DNA from: a virus
Strand: one strand, 5' to 3'
DNA: 64,000 nucleotides
Virus record (IMG/VR): IMGVR_UViG_3300038318_000232
Coordinates: 1 to 64,000 of that record
In this document: in pieces, positions 4,238-62,749 of the stretch
How the letters are laid out: each line of letters starts with the position of its first letter
Numbering within the stretch: position 1 is the stretch's first letter
Translations under genes and position numbers: made by a program
The notes under the pieces: generated by a model
What the model was told of the DNA's origin: nothing
Seen by the model: the letters and a program-made list of their open reading frames with translations, nothing else
Databases searched by the model: none

Positions 4238-5208
4238 TGGCAGTAAAGAATAGTTTGGTTCAGCAAACCAAGAGACAACCCTTCAGTGCATATCTCACCC
4301 AGGATGCTATCAAGAATCGCATAAACGCTATGATCGGCGGCAAAGACGGGCAACGGTTTATCACTTCCATAGTATCAGCCGTATCGGTTAATCCTGCCCT
4401 GGCTGAATGTGATTACGCAACCATATTTTCAGCGGCCATGTTGGGTGAAAGCCTGAAACTTTCCCCTTCCCCTCAACTTGGGCAATATTACATGGTTCCC
4501 TATAAGAAGAAAGGGAAAAACGGCGACCCAGACACGGTTACTGCCCAGTTCCAATTGGGCTATAAGGGCTATATCCAGCTTGCCATTCGTAGCGGGTACT
4601 ATCGGAAGATAAACGTCCTTGCAATCAAGGAAGGTGAACTAATCAAGTTTGACCCCCTGGAAGAAGTTATAGAGGTTCGCTTGATTGAGGACGAAGAAGA
4701 ACGGGAAACCGCCAAAACAATTGGCTATTATGCAATGTTTGAATACCATAACGGATTCAAGAAAGCCATGTACTGGAGCAAAAAGAAGATGCTGACCCAC
4801 GCCGACAAGTATAGCTCCGCTTTTAGCAAAGACCCTGTGAAGGCAAGGGACCCCAAATATAACAAGGTTTCTTTCGCTGATTACGAGGCTGGGAAAGTCA
4901 AGGAAAGCGACATGTGGCTATATTCTTCCTTCTGGTACAAAGACTTTGACGGGATGGCCCACAAGACTATGCTCCGCCAGTTAATCAGCAAATGGGGCAT
5001 CATGTCTATTGAAATGCAAAGTGCCTTTGAGAAGGACGAGGCGGTTATCTCCGAGGACGGCAGTTTTGAATATGTGGATAATGAACCAGCACCCACGGGC
5101 ATAGATACGCACTCAGATGTTATTGATACTACGGCAACCGTTACCGAACCGGATGGAACAGAGGACAATGTTCAGGATGCCTTCTTTGACCAAGAGCAGG
5201 AGGCATAG
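4237..5208 (+). CDS. recT: RecT-family single-strand annealing recombinase
   Basis: Motifs SIVSAVSVNPALAECD, SPSPQLGQYYMVPY, FQLGYKGYIQLAIRSGYY characteristic of RecT. Confidence 0.9.
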   Translation: MAVKNSLVQQTKRQPFSAYLTQDAIKNRINAMIGGKDGQRFITSIVSAVSVNPALAECDYATIFSAAMLGESLKLSPSPQLGQYYMVPYKKKGKNGDPDTVTAQFQLGYKGYIQLAIRSGYYRKINVLAIKEGELIKFDPLEEVIEVRLIEDEEERETAKTIGYYAMFEYHNGFKKAMYWSKKKMLTHADKYSSAFSKDPVKARDPKYNKVSFADYEAGKVKESDMWLYSSFWYKDFDGMAHKTMLRQLISKWGIMSIEMQSAFEKDEAVISEDGSFEYVDNEPAPTGIDTHSDVIDTTATVTEPDGTEDNVQDAFFDQEQEA

Positions 5209-7693: not shown

Positions 7694-8650
7694 ATGGACA
7701 CCGCACAACTCCGCGATCTGCAAGCCTTACCCCTGAAATACAAGATCATGATCTCCCAGGAGCGCATCCGTGAGTGGTACGAGCACTGGGATGGCAAGGT
7801 CTATGTCAGCTTCAGCGGGGGCAAAGACTCCACGGTTCTGCTTCATCTGGTGCGGCAGCTATATCCAGAGGTACCCGCCGTGTTCGTTGATACTGGGTTG
7901 GAATACCCAGAGATAAGGCAGTTTGTTAAGCAGCATGATAATGTGGTTTGGTTGAGGCCCAAGATGAATTTTAAAGAAGTAATTATACGGTATGGGTTCC
8001 CGGTAGCCAGTAAGCGAATTTCCCAATATATACACGAAATACAAACACCAACAGACAAAAATAAGGCTACCGTGCGGCTCCGTTTAACAGGCATTAGGAC
8101 AAGCGGCAAATACTCGGCCTGTTCAATAATCCCAGAGAAATGGCGCTGTTTAAAGGATGCTCCCTTTAAAGTAAGCGACCAGTGCTGTGGAGTTATGAAA
8201 AAGAAGCCCTTTGATAATTATGTTGCAGAGACGGGCCAGATGCCTTATGCGGGAGTAATGGCAAGCGACGCCCAAACTAGAGAGCTAGATTATTTACAAT
8301 CGGGTTGCAACGCATTTGACAAGAAACGCCCTATATCTCGCCCTCTTGGCTTCTGGATGGAGGCAGACATATGGGAGTATTTACACAAAAACAACGTACC
8401 ATACAGCCCTATTTACGACATGGGATTTACCCGCACCGGATGCATGTTCTGCATGTTCGGTGTTCACCTGGAACCGGAGCCAAACCGCTTCCAAAAGATG
8501 CAGGTGACGCATCCAAAACAGTGGGAGTATTGCATGTTCAAGTTGGGCCTGGCTGAAGTGCTGGACTATATCGGTGTACCTTGGAACGACAGCAATCAAC
8601 TATGGTCCACAGAAGAAATCTTAAAAGGAGGAAGCAACTTTGACCATTAA
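7694..8650 (+). CDS. PAPS-reductase / DndC-like PP-loop ATP pyrophosphatase family protein
   Basis: PP-loop SFSGGKDSTVLLHL, CCGVMKKKP and C-terminal GCMFCMFG Cys cluster. Confidence 0.8.
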   Translation: MDTAQLRDLQALPLKYKIMISQERIREWYEHWDGKVYVSFSGGKDSTVLLHLVRQLYPEVPAVFVDTGLEYPEIRQFVKQHDNVVWLRPKMNFKEVIIRYGFPVASKRISQYIHEIQTPTDKNKATVRLRLTGIRTSGKYSACSIIPEKWRCLKDAPFKVSDQCCGVMKKKPFDNYVAETGQMPYAGVMASDAQTRELDYLQSGCNAFDKKRPISRPLGFWMEADIWEYLHKNNVPYSPIYDMGFTRTGCMFCMFGVHLEPEPNRFQKMQVTHPKQWEYCMFKLGLAEVLDYIGVPWNDSNQLWSTEEILKGGSNFDH

Positions 8651-14545: not shown

Positions 14546-14745
14546 TGCTATTGATTTTCTATCATGACTTCACTGACAAAGAAATAAATATTCACCTTCT
14601 GGCAGGGATGAACTCCCTGCTTTTTGTTGAGGCCGAAGGGACAGAGCGGGAGCAGGCGGTGCATCTGATTCTTAGCGATAGGCAGATGCGGGAGTTAAAG
14701 AAGGCAATGGAGGTGGGAGCCAAACAATATGAACAATTGGAATAA
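14542..14745 (+). CDS. hypothetical protein (67 aa)
   Basis: Start within GGGAGGAGTGATGCTATTG box overlapping the dnaB stop. Confidence 0.5.
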   Translation: MMLLIFYHDFTDKEINIHLLAGMNSLLFVEAEGTEREQAVHLILSDRQMRELKKAMEVGAKQYEQLE

Positions 14746-15286
14746 AATCATACTGGATTTATGTGGTGGCACTGGTTCCTGGTCCAAACCCTATTATGAT
14801 AACGGATATGACGTTCGAGTTATCACCTTGCCGGACAATGATGTAAGGCTGTGCCCCCCCCCCCCGCAGGGAATTTATGGAATATTGGCAGCTCCCCCGT
14901 GTACCGATTTCGCTTCTAGCGGTGCTAGGTGGTGGGAGGCTAAAGGCAAATCTGCTTTGCTTGAAGCCCTGTCCATTGTAGATGCCTGTTACAGAATAAT
15001 ATCTATCGCTAATCCTGTATTTTGGTGCTTAGAAAATCCTATTGGTAGACTGGTTCATTATCTCGGTGAGCCAGTTTTGTATTTTGACCCCTGTGACTAC
15101 GGCGATCCGTATACCAAAAAAACTTGTCTGTGGGGCAACTTTAATATCCCCGCAAAGAACCCGGTAGAGCCAACGGAAGGCAGTAAGATGTGGCGATGCT
15201 ATGGAGGTAAAAGCGAACGAACCAAGCGATTGAGAAGCGCAACCCCCCCCGGTTTTGCCCAAGCCTTCTATGAAGCCAATAGATGA
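14729..15286 (+). CDS. short DNA cytosine-C5 methyltransferase-like protein (no obvious target-recognition domain)
   Basis: Motif I LDLCGGTGSW, motif IV AAPPCTDFAS, motif VI CLENP; contains a C12 tract (14854-14865) and a C8 tract (15243-15250). Confidence 0.7.
   Translation: MNNWNKIILDLCGGTGSWSKPYYDNGYDVRVITLPDNDVRLCPPPPQGIYGILAAPPCTDFASSGARWWEAKGKSALLEALSIVDACYRIISIANPVFWCLENPIGRLVHYLGEPVLYFDPCDYGDPYTKKTCLWGNFNIPAKNPVEPTEGSKMWRCYGGKSERTKRLRSATPPGFAQAFYEANR
14854..14865 (+). repeat. poly-C homopolymer (12 nt) inside the methyltransferase-like gene, currently in frame
   Basis: Counted directly: gtg + 12 C + gcagg; encodes CPPPPQ. Confidence 0.95.
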
Positions 15287-16024: not shown

Positions 16025-16182
16025 TCCCTACCAACAAGAAACGCCAATACCAAAAAGATTACTGGCTTAAGAAAGCATGGCTTTATCAAATCCCAACCGA
16101 AGGCCGCGAGGATGATGCGGCGAGAGAAGCAGAGCGCAGGTACAGGAAGGAATATCGGGCGAGGAAGAAGGTGGGGGGTTGA
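16021..16182 (+). CDS. small basic protein (53 aa)
   Basis: ATGA overlap with resolvase stop; below the ORF-track cut-off. Confidence 0.4.
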   Translation: MIPTNKKRQYQKDYWLKKAWLYQIPTEGREDDAAREAERRYRKEYRARKKVGG

Positions 16183-17091
16183 ATATTGGACTTATTGACG
16201 TTGACTCCAAAATCCCAAACTTAGCCCTGATGAAAATATCTGCATGGCATAAGGCGCAAGGTGATTCGGTTGAATGGTATGGAGGTTTGTTTGACAACCC
16301 GGACAGGATTTATGCCAGCAAGGTATTTACCTTTACTCCCGATTATCAATATTTCCCATCCGGGGGGGGGCATTCCCATATTTAAGGGTGGAATCGGCTA
16401 CGATATGCGCCCCAATAGTGAATACAGAACTTCTTTTTGCCCTATCGCTTTTGACTACATGTGCCCTGACTACTCATTGTATCCTGACATGGACTATTCT
16501 ATGGGGTTTTTAACTCGTGGATGCCCCAACAAATGTTCATGGTGTTTTGTTTGGAGAAAAGAAGGCAATATTCACCCGGCAGCAGACATTGATGACTTTT
16601 GTCGCCACAGGGAAGCAGTTTTAATGGACAACAATGTCTTAGCTTCAGATTGGGGCGTAAAACAAATTCAGAAGATTATTAAACTCGATATCCGCATTGA
16701 CTTTAATCAAGGGCTTGATGCGAGGCTCATTGACGATTCGATGGCCAAGCTACTCTCGAGGGTTAAATGGCGTGCGCCCGTTAGACTGGCTTGCGACACT
16801 TCGGCGCAGATGAAGCACGTTCAAAAAGCTGTGGAAGCCCTTCGGTGGTACAACACAAAGCCGATGGCCTATTCCTGTTACGTTTTGGTGAGGCCCGGCG
16901 AGGTTGAGGATGCTATTCGGCGGGTGAGATTCTTAAAGGGGCTTGGAGTTGATCCCTTTGTTCAACCATATCAACCGCCCGAGGGTAGATTGCCAACCAA
17001 AGAAGAAAGCGACTTGGCGCGGTATGTTGACATGAAAGCTACGTTTAAAAGTTGTTGGTGGGAGGAATATGGGAAGAAGGTGCGTCCATGA
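16179..17091 (+). pseudogene. phage radical-SAM protein split by a frameshift in a G9 tract
   Basis: N-terminal part 16179..16385 (MNIGLIDVDSKIPNLALMKISAWHKAQGD) and the CxxxCxxC part (GCPNKCSWC) in frame +1 from 16369; the frames join at G-run 16362-16370, and G8 would give one ORF. Confidence 0.8.
16362..16370 (+). repeat. poly-G homopolymer (9 nt) at the radical-SAM frame junction
   Basis: Counted directly: catcc + 9 G + cattcc. Confidence 0.95.
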
Positions 17092-22393: not shown

Positions 22394-23030
22394 ACATGCA
22401 TTTGATTTAACGGGAAAGGTATTTGGCAAATTAACTGTTATATCAAAACATAGCACCATAAAAAGATGTACGAGATGGAAGTGTAAGTGTGAATGTGGCA
22501 ATGAAGCAATTGTTTTAGGAGAATCGCTGAAGAGTGGAGCAACGAAAAGTTGCGGTTGTTATAGAAAAGAAATAACTAAAATCAAAGCAACTACACATGG
22601 GCTATCTAAAGATAAACTTTATGACATTTGGTGTGACATGAAAAGACGGTGCTACAACCCTAAAAACAAAAGATATGAAAATTATGGGGGACGCAACATA
22701 AAGGTATGTGAGGAATGGCATGAATTTAAGCCATTTTATGATTGGGCTTTAAATAATGGCTATATTGAAGGACTAACTATAGATCGCATAAATAATAATG
22801 GCGATTATGAACCAGATAATTGCCGATGGGCTACCGCTATTGTGCAAATGAATAACACGACAAGAAATCATTTCGTAGAATTTAAAGGACAAATAAAAAC
22901 CATTTCCCAATGGAGCAAGATCACAGGAATAAGCCAAGATGTCATAAAGGACCGATTAACTAAATTAGGATGGAGTGCCGAAAGGGCATTAACTGTTCCC
23001 GTACGGAGGTGTTTGCGTCATGGAAATTAA
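22374..23030 (+). CDS. AT-rich conserved phage protein, N-terminal Cys cluster plus C-terminal HTH (homing-endonuclease-like DNA-binding gene)
   Basis: WKCKCECGNE...CGCY, GLS..LY.IW..MKRRCYNP....Y..YGGR.I.VCEEW, C-terminal TISQWSKITGISQDVIKDRL; base composition visibly more AT-rich than neighbours. Confidence 0.55.
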   Translation: MMMLAGRHAFDLTGKVFGKLTVISKHSTIKRCTRWKCKCECGNEAIVLGESLKSGATKSCGCYRKEITKIKATTHGLSKDKLYDIWCDMKRRCYNPKNKRYENYGGRNIKVCEEWHEFKPFYDWALNNGYIEGLTIDRINNNGDYEPDNCRWATAIVQMNNTTRNHFVEFKGQIKTISQWSKITGISQDVIKDRLTKLGWSAERALTVPVRRCLRHGN

Positions 23031-23376
23031 AGATAGCGGAAATCGACATTCCTTTCCCACCGGCGCGGTAAGGGACATGCAAGAAGGCAAGGGTCGTTGT
23101 GATCTTCTCCCCCCTGCTGCCATACTCCGCCTAGCTAGGCACTTTGAGGCAGGAGCCAAGAAGTATGGTGAACGGAACTGGGAAAAGGGAATCCCCATAA
23201 GCTCCTTTATTGACAGTGCTTTTCGCCACATCTTGAAGTATATGCAAGGTTTAACTGACGAGGATCACTTGGTTGCAGCTGCGTGGAACCTGCTATGCGC
23301 CTTAGAGATGGAAGAACGCTTTGGGTGGACATTTGCAGAAGGGGGTGAGTCAACTGCCCAAGATACCACACTATAA
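23020..23376 (+). CDS. DUF5664-type (dATP/dGTP pyrophosphohydrolase-like) protein
   Basis: FPTGAVRD...GKGRCDLLPP.A...LA.HFE.GAKKYGERNWEKG....F.DSAFRH...Y....DEDHL.AAAWN pattern. Confidence 0.6.
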   Translation: MEIKDSGNRHSFPTGAVRDMQEGKGRCDLLPPAAILRLARHFEAGAKKYGERNWEKGIPISSFIDSAFRHILKYMQGLTDEDHLVAAAWNLLCALEMEERFGWTFAEGGESTAQDTTL

Positions 23377-55980: not shown

Positions 55981-57252
55981 CTACTCACCGAGAATCGCCC
56001 CCCAGCCGAACTGCATAAAGCAGGATAGGAACTTATCAGGGTTTTCTCCAAAATAAACAACTGCCTGCCCCTGCAAAGGCGCTCCAATAGAGCCACCGGG
56101 AGTATAGAATTTAACCCGGCCTTTCGGAAACACAATTGCACTTGCTTGGCCAATAAGGGTATTAAACCAAGCGGTTTCTGTGGCATTATTCACCAAAACA
56201 ATCGCTTCCTGAATATCACCAGTCGCAAAATAATTAACCAGTTTATCACAGAACAAAGGAATTAACTCCCCCGCATATGGGGGATTCATCCAAACGCGGC
56301 CAGTCCAATCTTGTTCTAATCCGTTGTCCTCTATAGTAAATATCTGCTTCGCGCCTACTACCCTATTAGCAACTTCACTGCTGGCCGGATCTAAATCTAT
56401 ATCACCCATTACCTCCTTGGCCGCTTCTATATACGGCGAAGGTGTATACCATTCGTTGTTACCGGAATTATAGGCAACATGCGGGGTTTTCTTCTCTATG
56501 GCTTCCTTAACCGTTTTTGATTCACCGGTTGCCACTTCCTGAATAACTTGCCGCTGTACTTCGGGTTCGGCCTTCGCTAGTTCCAAAGTATCCTTCTTAG
56601 TCACCGGAATCTCATGGTTAAGAATTTGCTGTTTTACTTGGGGTGTAGTGTTTTGAGTTATAGTGTCCACGGCCCTAGTGAATTCAGCATCATTTTTGAT
56701 GGTTCGAGGAGAAACATTGTGCTGCTCAGCCAATCTTTCAGCCGTTTTAGGTTGGGTGCAATTTTTGCCTTCAACCTCGCTAAATTGGTTTATCCCTTGC
56801 TCATTAGGAATTTTCTTTTTTTCTCTCTCGTATTGCAAACCCCGAAGATAACTTTGATTCGCCGGAGTTAAATTACGTCGGCCCAATTGGTTATTTATTA
56901 TCCAGTCAATTACCTCGTCGCGGCTATCAAAATCCATCTCTATTGTTTTAAATTCAATGCCATGATCTTGGCAAATGTCATATCGGTTATGTCCATCAAT
57001 CAAAATGTGTATTTCTTCCATGGGATAAATTCCATAACCGCACTTAGGGCACTCCCAATTGCCGCCTGGTCCGAACTCAACTGCAACATCTTCGCAACAA
57101 TCACGACAATACCCAGTATCATACATTATGGGTTGCGCCCAAACTACTAGCGCATCTCGGCACCCTTCCGCAACAATGTTTTTCTCTAACTGCTCATACT
57201 CATCCACTGCCAACCGGGGAATGAGATTCCTGAACTCCTGATCAATAATCAT
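55981..57252 (-). CDS. ParB-like nuclease domain fused to phage-type DNA N6-adenine methyltransferase
   Basis: ParB box ILIDGHNRY with an inserted zinc ribbon; C-terminal VWMNPPYAGE (NPPY) methyltransferase domain. Confidence 0.85.
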   Translation of the reverse strand: MIIDQEFRNLIPRLAVDEYEQLEKNIVAEGCRDALVVWAQPIMYDTGYCRDCCEDVAVEFGPGGNWECPKCGYGIYPMEEIHILIDGHNRYDICQDHGIEFKTIEMDFDSRDEVIDWIINNQLGRRNLTPANQSYLRGLQYEREKKKIPNEQGINQFSEVEGKNCTQPKTAERLAEQHNVSPRTIKNDAEFTRAVDTITQNTTPQVKQQILNHEIPVTKKDTLELAKAEPEVQRQVIQEVATGESKTVKEAIEKKTPHVAYNSGNNEWYTPSPYIEAAKEVMGDIDLDPASSEVANRVVGAKQIFTIEDNGLEQDWTGRVWMNPPYAGELIPLFCDKLVNYFATGDIQEAIVLVNNATETAWFNTLIGQASAIVFPKGRVKFYTPGGSIGAPLQGQAVVYFGENPDKFLSCFMQFGWGAILGE

Positions 57253-57397
57253 CAATACCATCCTTTCGTATTGGTCAATCCACGATAAATGCCCGGAACA
57301 GAAGGCAGGATTTACCTCTTTTCGGCTTGCAATCACCTATTTCCGGGCATGAAAAAAGCCGCTCCCGAAAGAACGGCCTTTATCACCTTATTTATTT

Positions 57398-58386: not shown

Positions 58387-58395
58387 CCCCCCCCC
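58387..58395. repeat. poly-C homopolymer (9 nt) in the ORF-free control region
   Basis: Counted directly. Confidence 0.9.
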
Positions 58396-62038: not shown

Positions 62039-62749
62039 ATGATGGTACAACTCACTCAGGAACAGATAAATGTCCTGGAGGCGGCGGGCGCAATGCCTCA
62101 GCAGGAGATTCCCTCAGTCCCTCAGTACGGTAAAAAATTCTCCCTGGTTAAGGGCAGCGGGAAAAAGCGCAAACCCAAGAGACTTCCCAAGGTAGTCAGT
62201 GAGGAAAAATTTGCTCAGTTAGTCTCCAAGCTCAATACCAAGTGCTTTATCGGGCTCCGCAATCGCGTTATCTTGGAAACCCTGTACAAATCCGGCCTCA
62301 GAGTGCAAGAGTTATGCGATCTCCAAGTCTCAGATGTAAATATTGAAACCGGCCAGATTTATGTCCAGGAAGGCAAGAACTCAAAGGATAGAATGATTGC
62401 TATTGGCCCTTCGCTCATGGAATGGCTCAGTCAATGGGCAAGCGTGCGGCCTCAGCAGAGCGAGAGCTTCTTCTGTACCTTCAAGGGCGGGGCTTTAAAT
62501 AAGCGGTATGTACGGGCTATGATAGAGCGGCAGAGCATCAACACTCAGGTATTTATCCAGGTTGGCAAGAAAAAGAAGGTTGTTTGGCCTCATGCTCTAC
62601 GCCATTCGTTTGCCACGCATTTGCTGGACAAAGGCATGAACATTATCGAGGTTAAGGAGCTCATGGGGCATGAGAGTATTGCTACAACCCAGGTGTACAC
62701 CCATGTTTCGATGAAGGTTCTGGATGCCAAGATTAAAGCCCTTGGTTAA
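62039..62749 (+). CDS. short tyrosine recombinase (XerC/D-like catalytic domain, no large N-terminal arm-binding domain)
   Basis: RNRVILETLYKSGLRVQELCDL, HALRHSFATHLL, GHESIATTQVYTHV (R..HxxR..H..Y). Confidence 0.85.
   Translation: MMVQLTQEQINVLEAAGAMPQQEIPSVPQYGKKFSLVKGSGKKRKPKRLPKVVSEEKFAQLVSKLNTKCFIGLRNRVILETLYKSGLRVQELCDLQVSDVNIETGQIYVQEGKNSKDRMIAIGPSLMEWLSQWASVRPQQSESFFCTFKGGALNKRYVRAMIERQSINTQVFIQVGKKKKVVWPHALRHSFATHLLDKGMNIIEVKELMGHESIATTQVYTHVSMKVLDAKIKALG

Follow-up and report, generated by a model that had tools for sequence, protein, structure and literature searches.

Can a run of twelve cytosines inside a methyltransferase gene of a phage serve as a switch that turns DNA methylation on and off? 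This question is raised by a stretch of 64,000 nucleotides (nt) of the IMG/VR virus record IMGVR_UViG_3300038318_000232 (positions 1 to 64,000, hereafter called the window), which carries a gene for a small Dcm-like C5-cytosine DNA methyltransferase, here called the methylase, with a homopolymer of twelve C (C12) in its coding sequence. An original prediction, made from the letters of the window alone, had taken this tract for a possible substrate of slipped-strand phase variation. The tract is indeed slippage-prone: C12 in the window is replaced by C9 in methylase genes that are otherwise identical. A methylation on/off switch at this tract is plausible, and with a probability of about one half we regard the tract as a de facto young contingency locus, with the methylase ON at the level of the consensus and OFF variants available.

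The methylase gene and its C12 tract

The open reading frame (ORF) that contains the tract encodes a protein of 185 amino acids (aa), which matched the phrog_757 profile, 'DNA methyltransferase', with an E-value of 9.8e-49; residues 5-184 align with positions 14-218 of the profile, which has 247 in all. In metagenomes, homologues of ~180 aa number more than 8000, and tblastn retrieved 1527 records of cultured phages, including Drexlerviridae and Webervirus, many of them annotated as Dcm or DNA cytosine methyltransferase. NCBI lists the 184-aa allele described below as 'DNA cytosine methyltransferase [Pelotomaculum sp.]'. The gathering threshold of Pfam PF00145 (DNA_methylase) was missed (11.7 bits with a cut-off of 22, E 0.17, residues 49-103 only), a profile search of the PDB gave weak matches only, to M.HaeIII (E 0.17), and a search of NCBIfam gave no match. 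The matches to Pfam and PDB sequences were thus not strong enough for a classification, which is based instead on the PHROG match, the fold and the conservation of motifs. The AlphaFold2 model (predicted local distance difference test (pLDDT) 86, predicted template modelling score (pTM) 0.84) had its best matches in the PDB, as determined with Foldseek, with DNMT3A/3B, M.HaeIII and M.HhaI (E 2e-6 to 1e-4, query TM ~0.6). In an alignment of 45 homologues, invariant residues were found in motifs I, IV and VI (Table 1), residues C12, G13, G14 and T15 of motif I were conserved at 90% or more, and a Y-T-K-K-T-C-L-W-G segment as well as the C-terminal RSxTPPGF motif were invariant or nearly so. Motifs IV and VI are also conserved in the Dcm-like proteins of Drexlerviridae. 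Motif VIII has Y-T-K-K-T where QxRxR is canonical, and the place of a target-recognition domain, between YTKKTCLWG and RSxTPPGF, is taken by ~30 residues (137-168), which form the block of lowest pLDDT (61-71) in the model. Sequence and model thus support a C5-cytosine-methyltransferase-like protein with a very short target-recognition region, in agreement with the minimal enzyme that had been predicted, and 5-methylcytosine-forming activity of the 185-aa protein is predicted.

The C12 run consists of the last base of the Cys42 codon, three CCC codons and the first two bases of a CCG codon (TGC CCC CCC CCC CCG CAG) and is read as Cys-Pro-Pro-Pro-Pro-Gln (C-P-P-P-P-Q). It is an uninterrupted repeat within the reading frame and long enough for slippage, as is typical of contingency loci, and in the protein it is part of the surface loop that leads from motif III (DVR) to motif IV (PPC). 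Chance does not account for it, as the original prediction had argued: none of 100 dinucleotide-preserving shuffles of the window produced any C12, and an estimate based on composition only amounted to ~0.003 per window. Codon bias is no explanation either, because usage of Pro codons in the window is balanced (CCC 30%, 78 long ORFs) and CCC-CCC pairs, which make up 3 of the 33 Pro-Pro dipeptides of the window, are all confined to the methylase gene. Tract lengths that are not a multiple of three lead to a stop at codon 61-84, by which the catalytic Cys58 and everything downstream of it are destroyed or removed. In the window the tract is in frame, as had been stated, and both this run and a second one of eight C (C8) near the 3' end of the gene lie exactly at the predicted positions within the ORF.

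The C8 run was indeed present, but it merely reflects the codons of a conserved Thr-Pro-Pro. It was unchanged in 13 of 13 contigs checked, T172 is invariant and P173 nearly invariant in the alignment of the 45 homologues, and the same C8 is found at the RSxTPPGF motif in the homologue loci L009/L010 and L096. Further runs of at least eight G or C in the window are limited to a G9 in a radical S-adenosylmethionine (radical-SAM) gene and to a C9 outside of genes.

Tract length among near-identical phages

Contigs of the phage group were gathered via the 66-aa gene upstream of the methylase, which gave 17 contigs from about ten samples, all of them consensus assemblies. Judged by protein length, four of the 17 carry the C12 allele (185 aa) and 13 the C9 allele (184 aa). 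The DNA of 12 further contigs, which stem from four studies or more and were built with several assemblers, had C9 (Pro3) throughout, compared to C12 (Pro4) in the window contig. In 11 of these C9 contigs (L083, L164-L173) the remaining 555 nt of the gene had not a single mismatch to the window. Tract length therefore varies between otherwise identical methylase genes, and no other site of the gene comes close to the C9/C12 tract in mutability. The flanks of the 11 contigs are 1-3% divergent, mosaic or replaced: DnaB is 75% identical in some, and the radical-SAM gene is swapped for a helicase or an N6/N4 methylase gene. A methylase gene that is identical apart from the tract, amid differing neighbours, suggests a cassette that was exchanged not long ago within a group of mosaic phages.

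The canonical loop, Y-x-P-P-x-x, has the length given by C9, and for this reason C12 is, on the comparison of sequences, a derived +3 expansion of C9. All codons of the tract but the last are CCC, which points to slippage at the DNA level as the origin of the tract.

Homopolymers of nine or more are error-prone in short-read metagenome assemblies and the coverage of the window contig is only ~11x, so a miscalled tract or tract length had to be considered; an odd inverted replacement beside the tract in one contig of low coverage, described below, may also be taken as a sign of faulty assembly. Such an artefact is hardly credible as the source of the two alleles. The identical 185-aa protein recurs on 3-4 contigs, including two of 68,326 nt and 68,390 nt, with records under ENA, JGI/IMG and Logan, so that C12 is no accident of one assembly. 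The C9 of the 12 contigs read at the DNA level is likewise identical across studies and different assemblers. Moreover, neither length breaks the frame, and most random miscalls would be expected to be +/-1.

The replacement was seen in contig L001 (ERZ724027 NODE_16783, 3.9x coverage), in which positions 495-527 substitute window positions 14783-14815 by the exact reverse complement of 14870-14902. This gives a perfect 33-nt inverted repeat with a 39-nt spacer that holds the C9 run, and the frame is kept. An invertible element or a templated mutation was considered and rejected: the arrangement is found in this one contig and 11 others are normal, and the wild-type segment at the site has no partial inverted repeat (8 of 33 positions match). 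The replacement is probably an assembly or chimera artefact, though its equal length is odd.

The two in-frame alleles could also differ in what the protein does. Consecutive prolines stall the ribosome, and stalling is relieved by EF-P. A tract that changes between Pro3 and Pro4 just ahead of the strand by which motif IV is reached could thus act as a rheostat, by which the level or the activity of the methylase is tuned via polyproline stalling or via loop geometry, and the restriction to in-frame alleles would fit. There are just two alleles, one of them with the canonical loop length, and an effect at the level of the protein would need no pure-C codons, yet these are what is found in all positions but the last. 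We consider a rheostat unlikely.

Table 1 Positions of the methylase gene, its motifs and tracts, and of other features of the phage in the window
Feature	Position	Strand	Remarks
Dcm-like C5-cytosine DNA methyltransferase gene	14729..15286	+	185 aa, phrog_757
Motif I, SAM-binding loop DLCGGTG	14756..14776	+	residues 10-16; D10, L11 and G16 invariant
C12 homopolymer	14854..14865	+	codons 42-46, encodes Pro43-Pro46
Motif IV, catalytic Pro-Pro-Cys (P56, P57, C58)	14894..14902	+	P56 and C58 invariant in 45 homologues
Motif VI, Glu-Asn-Pro (E102, N103, P104)	15032..15040	+	invariant in 45 homologues
C8 run, ACC CCC CCC	15243..15250	+	encodes T-P-P of the C-terminal RSxTPPGF motif
G9 tract frameshifting the radical-SAM gene	16362..16370	+	gene 16179-17091, phrog_9298
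PAPS-reductase-like protein	7694-8650	+	PF01507
MazZ-like dATP/dGTP diphosphohydrolase N-terminal domain protein	23020-23376	+	PF18909
ParB-like/DNA methyltransferase fusion	55981-57336	-	phrog_111
C9 run	58387-58395		intergenic, low-coding stretch between the end of the ParB-methylase gene and the integrase side
Integrase	62039-62749

G/C runs in homologues and precedents for a switch

The tract is specific to the lineage of the window: among 80 IMG/VR relatives it is absent wherever an alignment of the loop was possible, and the loop there reads Y-x-P-P-x-x with mixed codons (CCA CCA, CCT CCT, CCA CCG). Of the two findings that the original prediction had named as speaking against phase variation, Pro codons interrupted in relatives and a tract of invariant length, the first was made and the second was not. 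Three other lineages (L103, L199, L255) have C7-C8 at exactly the same Pro-Pro with a normal residue count, and the conserved Pro-Pro is therefore a natural seed for a run. The loop between motifs III and IV differs in length and sequence among homologues.

Within the methylase family, alleles out of frame were found in other lineages only, where independent G/C tracts lend indirect support to a switch. A homologue with 57% identity has a G tract in a neighbouring loop, which is G11 and in frame in four contigs (L176-L179). In a strain that is 97.6% identical to them across the locus (L175, IMGVR_UViG_3300027974_000229) the tract is G10 (~5107-5116) and the frame is shifted, with a stop right after TVGGG; the rest of the gene differs by one base. 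In the second lineage (L082 3471-3479 / L180, IMGVR_UViG_3300025616_000024) a G9 breaks the methylase frame near the C-terminus, beyond the tract the frame is undamaged up to the normal stop (GGVSERTKMLRSITPKGFARAFFEANR), and removal of one G restores GGxSERTK...RSITP. In addition, an in-frame C10 that encodes FTPPPKNP is present in the homologues L121 and L269.

Across ~220 unique homologues, runs of at least eight G or C amounted to 10 in 131 kb of methylase genes versus 12 in 1122 kb of flanks (P 2e-6), a density ~7-fold higher in the genes than in the 1.1 Mb of flanking DNA. When codons were shuffled synonymously within each of 214 in-frame homologue genes (loci L003-L260), runs of at least eight were still in excess (9 observed, 3.6 expected, P 0.006), as were runs of at least ten (2 observed, 0.08 expected, P 0.005). 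As a sign of switching, this family-wide excess is suggestive. Runs of exactly seven were far rarer than under the same null (1 observed, ~12 expected), a deficit that may come from non-independence of the genes or from run-length dynamics.

Is there any use for a methylase that is switched off? A documented case comes from the Dcm-like C5-cytosine methyltransferases of Drexlerviridae, which belong to the same family as the window protein. The latter matched bas01_0030 of BASEL phage Bas01 by BLASTP (E 3e-22) and aligned over its full length with CPT_LL5_79 of phage LL5, with PPCT, ENP, Y-x-KKTC-x-W and RSxTPxGFA in common. According to the retron Ec86 preprint, Dcm of the Drexlerviridae phage K42 (K42/KarlJaspers) makes 5-methylcytosine at CCWGG, as determined by liquid chromatography-mass spectrometry, and was reported to trigger the retron; escaper phages inactivate dcm, one of them by a frameshift due to a 1-bp deletion. 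A cost of methylation is thus documented for the Dcm-like family and may, by analogy, apply to the window phage. Residues C82, E128, K175 and K176 of K42 Dcm have the same spacing as C79, E125, K172 and K173 of the LL5 protein, to which C58, E102, K130 and K131 of the window protein correspond, and DNMT3A is the best structural relative both of the window protein (Foldseek) and, per the preprint, of K42 Dcm. The link between the window protein and K42 Dcm was drawn via the homology to Bas01 and LL5 and the identical motif spacing, not via the K42 sequence, and the CCWGG specificity is not to be presumed for the shorter window protein. For K42 dcm no homopolymer tract is reported, and escape is by ordinary mutations.

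Homopolymers that act as switches are already known from phages. Hypermutable polyG tracts of Campylobacter phages are the subject of a paper cited in PMC12823448 (Sorensen et al. 2021, Cell Rep 35:109214), and these in-gene G/C homopolymers are reported to generate phenotypic subpopulations. The tracts reportedly act mainly in receptor-binding and host-range genes, in a host genus without mismatch repair. An A9 run in agt of T2 and an A6 run in rIIA of T4 are phage contingency loci, and by the former, glucosylation of DNA is switched back and forth as two regimes of restriction demand (Gomez, Barrick & Waters, bioRxiv 10.1101/2025.10.21.683753). T2 agt resembles the window locus in that a homopolymer lies in a phage DNA-modification gene, where slippage in T2 gives reversible frameshifts, and it exemplifies a trade-off in which a modification guards against one host defence and sensitises to another. 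The T2 and T4 runs were shown experimentally to switch, with reversion ~1000-fold above a point mutant and with variation at the level of reads, whereas the alleles of the window lineage are consensus alleles, all in frame. Moreover, the window tract is G/C and longer, and the gene that contains it codes for a methyltransferase of a temperate phage whose host is an uncultured anaerobe.

Contingency locus, tolerated hotspot or phasevarion

How could a switch at this tract operate? The contingency-locus model starts from a predicted functional, early-made small C5-cytosine methylase whose role would be the methylation of phage DNA against host restriction. In a Pelotomaculum-associated phage lineage the Pro-Pro loop codons would have been turned into a pure C run (C9), which would slip in replication, and the +3 derivative found in the window, C12 with Pro4 in place of Pro3, would stay ON; both products would be tolerated because the loop is variable. 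A run of C9-C12 would also yield +/-1 variants, presumably at a high rate. These would be nulls, held at low frequency for as long as methylation is of use, and a phage population would be expected to hold a standing minority of methylase-null genomes. Such OFF variants would be useful where methylation harms, as with methyl-dependent restriction or with retron-type sensors of phage Dcm; by analogy with T2 agt and retron Ec86, we infer that situations of this kind exist.

Several observations weigh against this model, and its main rival is a tolerated mutational hotspot that plays no role in switching, at which frameshifts are purged and only in-frame changes survive in a length-tolerant loop. 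The run would then be a by-product of Pro-Pro codons that by chance turned into CCC CCC, with no adaptive or regulatory meaning. The molecular mechanism is common to both models; what separates them is solely the importance of OFF variants. No allele out of frame was found at this tract: 17 of 17 contigs have an intact ORF of 184 or 185 aa. A DNA search with flank, gap and flank retrieved no further allele from IMG/VR and only the already known L001 from the metagenome collection, and in a search of the protein database for OFF alleles the top 120 matches contained no high-identity methylase fragments. The record thus holds a single mutational event (C9 to C12, or the reverse), which is in frame, and an in-frame-only outcome would be equally expected from purifying selection on a merely tolerated hotspot. 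Of the slipped-strand phase variation originally proposed, the part that stands is a tract length that is mutable in nature; what was seen is a change between Pro3 and Pro4. The C tract is also, as the relatives without it indicate, evolutionarily young, and nothing indicates that a pure repeat was maintained over long periods. In the family as a whole, runs of at least seven were not enriched in the 214 genes (10 observed versus 16 expected under the codon-shuffle null), three Pro-Pro motifs that are conserved account for much of the C8 excess, the homologues lack phylogenetic independence, and the frameshifted G10 and G9 alleles come from metagenome assemblies in which errors of the homopolymer consensus are possible. 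Finally, the window protein, with 185 aa compared to ~230 aa in the Drexlerviridae enzymes, does not have their insertions of ~19 and ~26 residues.

The hotspot would further explain why C7-C8 seeds occur at the same Pro-Pro in three other lineages without a change in residue count, why loop length and sequence vary among homologues, and why the shorter C8 tract, at an essential motif, is invariant. It leaves the excess of runs of ten or more over the codon-aware null and the frameshifted, otherwise intact alleles in two other lineages of the family to be accounted for. In addition, the methylase family is costly in some hosts, so that OFF variants are not necessarily dead ends, and a path from C9 to C12 via the common +/-1 steps would need viable OFF intermediates. 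We regard the hotspot as a serious possibility, although short of probable.

The contingency locus, if it exists, would sit in a phage of an anaerobe, namely of a bacterium from anaerobic digesters. The source sample of the window contig is a 'fermentation metagenome', and a 99%-identical copy of the methylase was found on a contig binned to Pelotomaculum sp. UBA10960. With a large terminase, tail proteins, an integrase and a second methylase, the phage is siphovirus-like and temperate-like. The methylase gene lies in the early/replication module, after the genes for a replisome organiser and a DnaB helicase and before that for a Holliday-junction resolvase, and this early context argues for anti-restriction instead of regulation.

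The original prediction had spoken of phasevarions. In bacteria these are formed by phase-variable Type III mod and Type I hsd genes, in Haemophilus, Neisseria, Helicobacter and Moraxella (PMC5149525, PMC6902483). The likeness is a simple-sequence repeat within the ORF of a DNA methyltransferase, the frame of which sets ON and OFF in the bacterial systems. The difference is that phasevarions are chromosomal N6-adenine mod/hsd systems by which a regulon is re-programmed, whereas the window gene, which lies in a module of early genes, codes for a C5-cytosine enzyme of the orphan type found in phages, and no regulon is expected for it. A classical phasevarion would mean that the ON/OFF methylase alters methylation of host or prophage promoters and thereby controls a set of genes in the lysogen. 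A repeat tract in a methylase gene is the classic arrangement for this, and expression in a lysogen is possible in principle in a temperate-like phage with an integrase. The location next to DnaB and resolvase genes and not in a lysogeny module, the orphan Dcm-like family, which is neither Type III mod nor Type I hsd, and the 17 contigs without an OFF allele make such a system very improbable, and the label does not fit an orphan phage enzyme of the anti-restriction type.

Three genes downstream of the methylase, the radical-SAM gene is out of frame due to its G9 tract. With G8 it would give an ORF of 303 aa, 98% of which is covered by the match to phage radical-SAM proteins. On L164 (5357-6267) there is a copy with 99.5% identity that has G7 and is also out of frame, the two copies differ by three substitutions, all non-synonymous, and an in-frame allele of this radical-SAM lineage was not found in the protein database. 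The gene may be either phase-OFF or a decaying pseudogene whose tract still slips. In either case the G9/G7 difference between the two sequences would indicate that G/C tracts slip in this phage lineage. A functional link between methylase and radical-SAM gene was ruled out, since a radical-SAM gene lies within 3 kb in only 2 of 239 homologue loci.

Tracts were also seen beside other phrog_757 homologues: in L051 (5165-5173) an adenine-methylase gene of the Dam-like (NPPY) kind contains a G9 that is in frame (DWGGE), and another tract lies at L122 2974-2982. The window phage itself encodes further proteins for the modification or metabolism of nucleic acids, listed in Table 1: a ParB-like/DNA methyltransferase fusion, a MazZ-like protein and a PAPS-reductase-like protein.

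Could such switches be common in the family? A broader model holds that G/C homopolymer switches arose repeatedly and independently in minimal Dcm-like phage methylases as a bet-hedging device. It would cover C9/C12 here, G10/G11, G9 and C10 at other positions elsewhere, and, with neighbouring modification genes added, G7/G9 of the radical-SAM gene and G9 of the Dam-like methylase in L051. Methylated genomes would evade classical restriction, and unmethylated ones would evade methyl-dependent restriction and Dcm-sensing retrons. We consider this generalisation tentative and rather doubtful.

In sum, homopolymer switches of phages (Campylobacter polyG tracts, A runs of T-even phages) and phase variation of bacterial methylases were already known; what would be new here, within this known type of switch, is that the orphan Dcm-like methylase of a temperate phage, with an anaerobe as host, contains a G/C tract. 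Even without switching, the tract is a clean example of a conserved Pro-Pro that seeded a slippery run, followed by an in-frame expansion. Methylase genes of viromes that bear homopolymers are best judged from reads and not from the consensus, as otherwise the linking of phages to hosts by their methylomes may be confounded. Should the tract prove to switch, an anti-restriction methylase of an uncultured phage would contain a natural contingency locus, which would join homopolymer-based bet-hedging of phages with phage Dcm as a retron trigger and would suggest that the methylation status in phage populations is deliberately heterogeneous.

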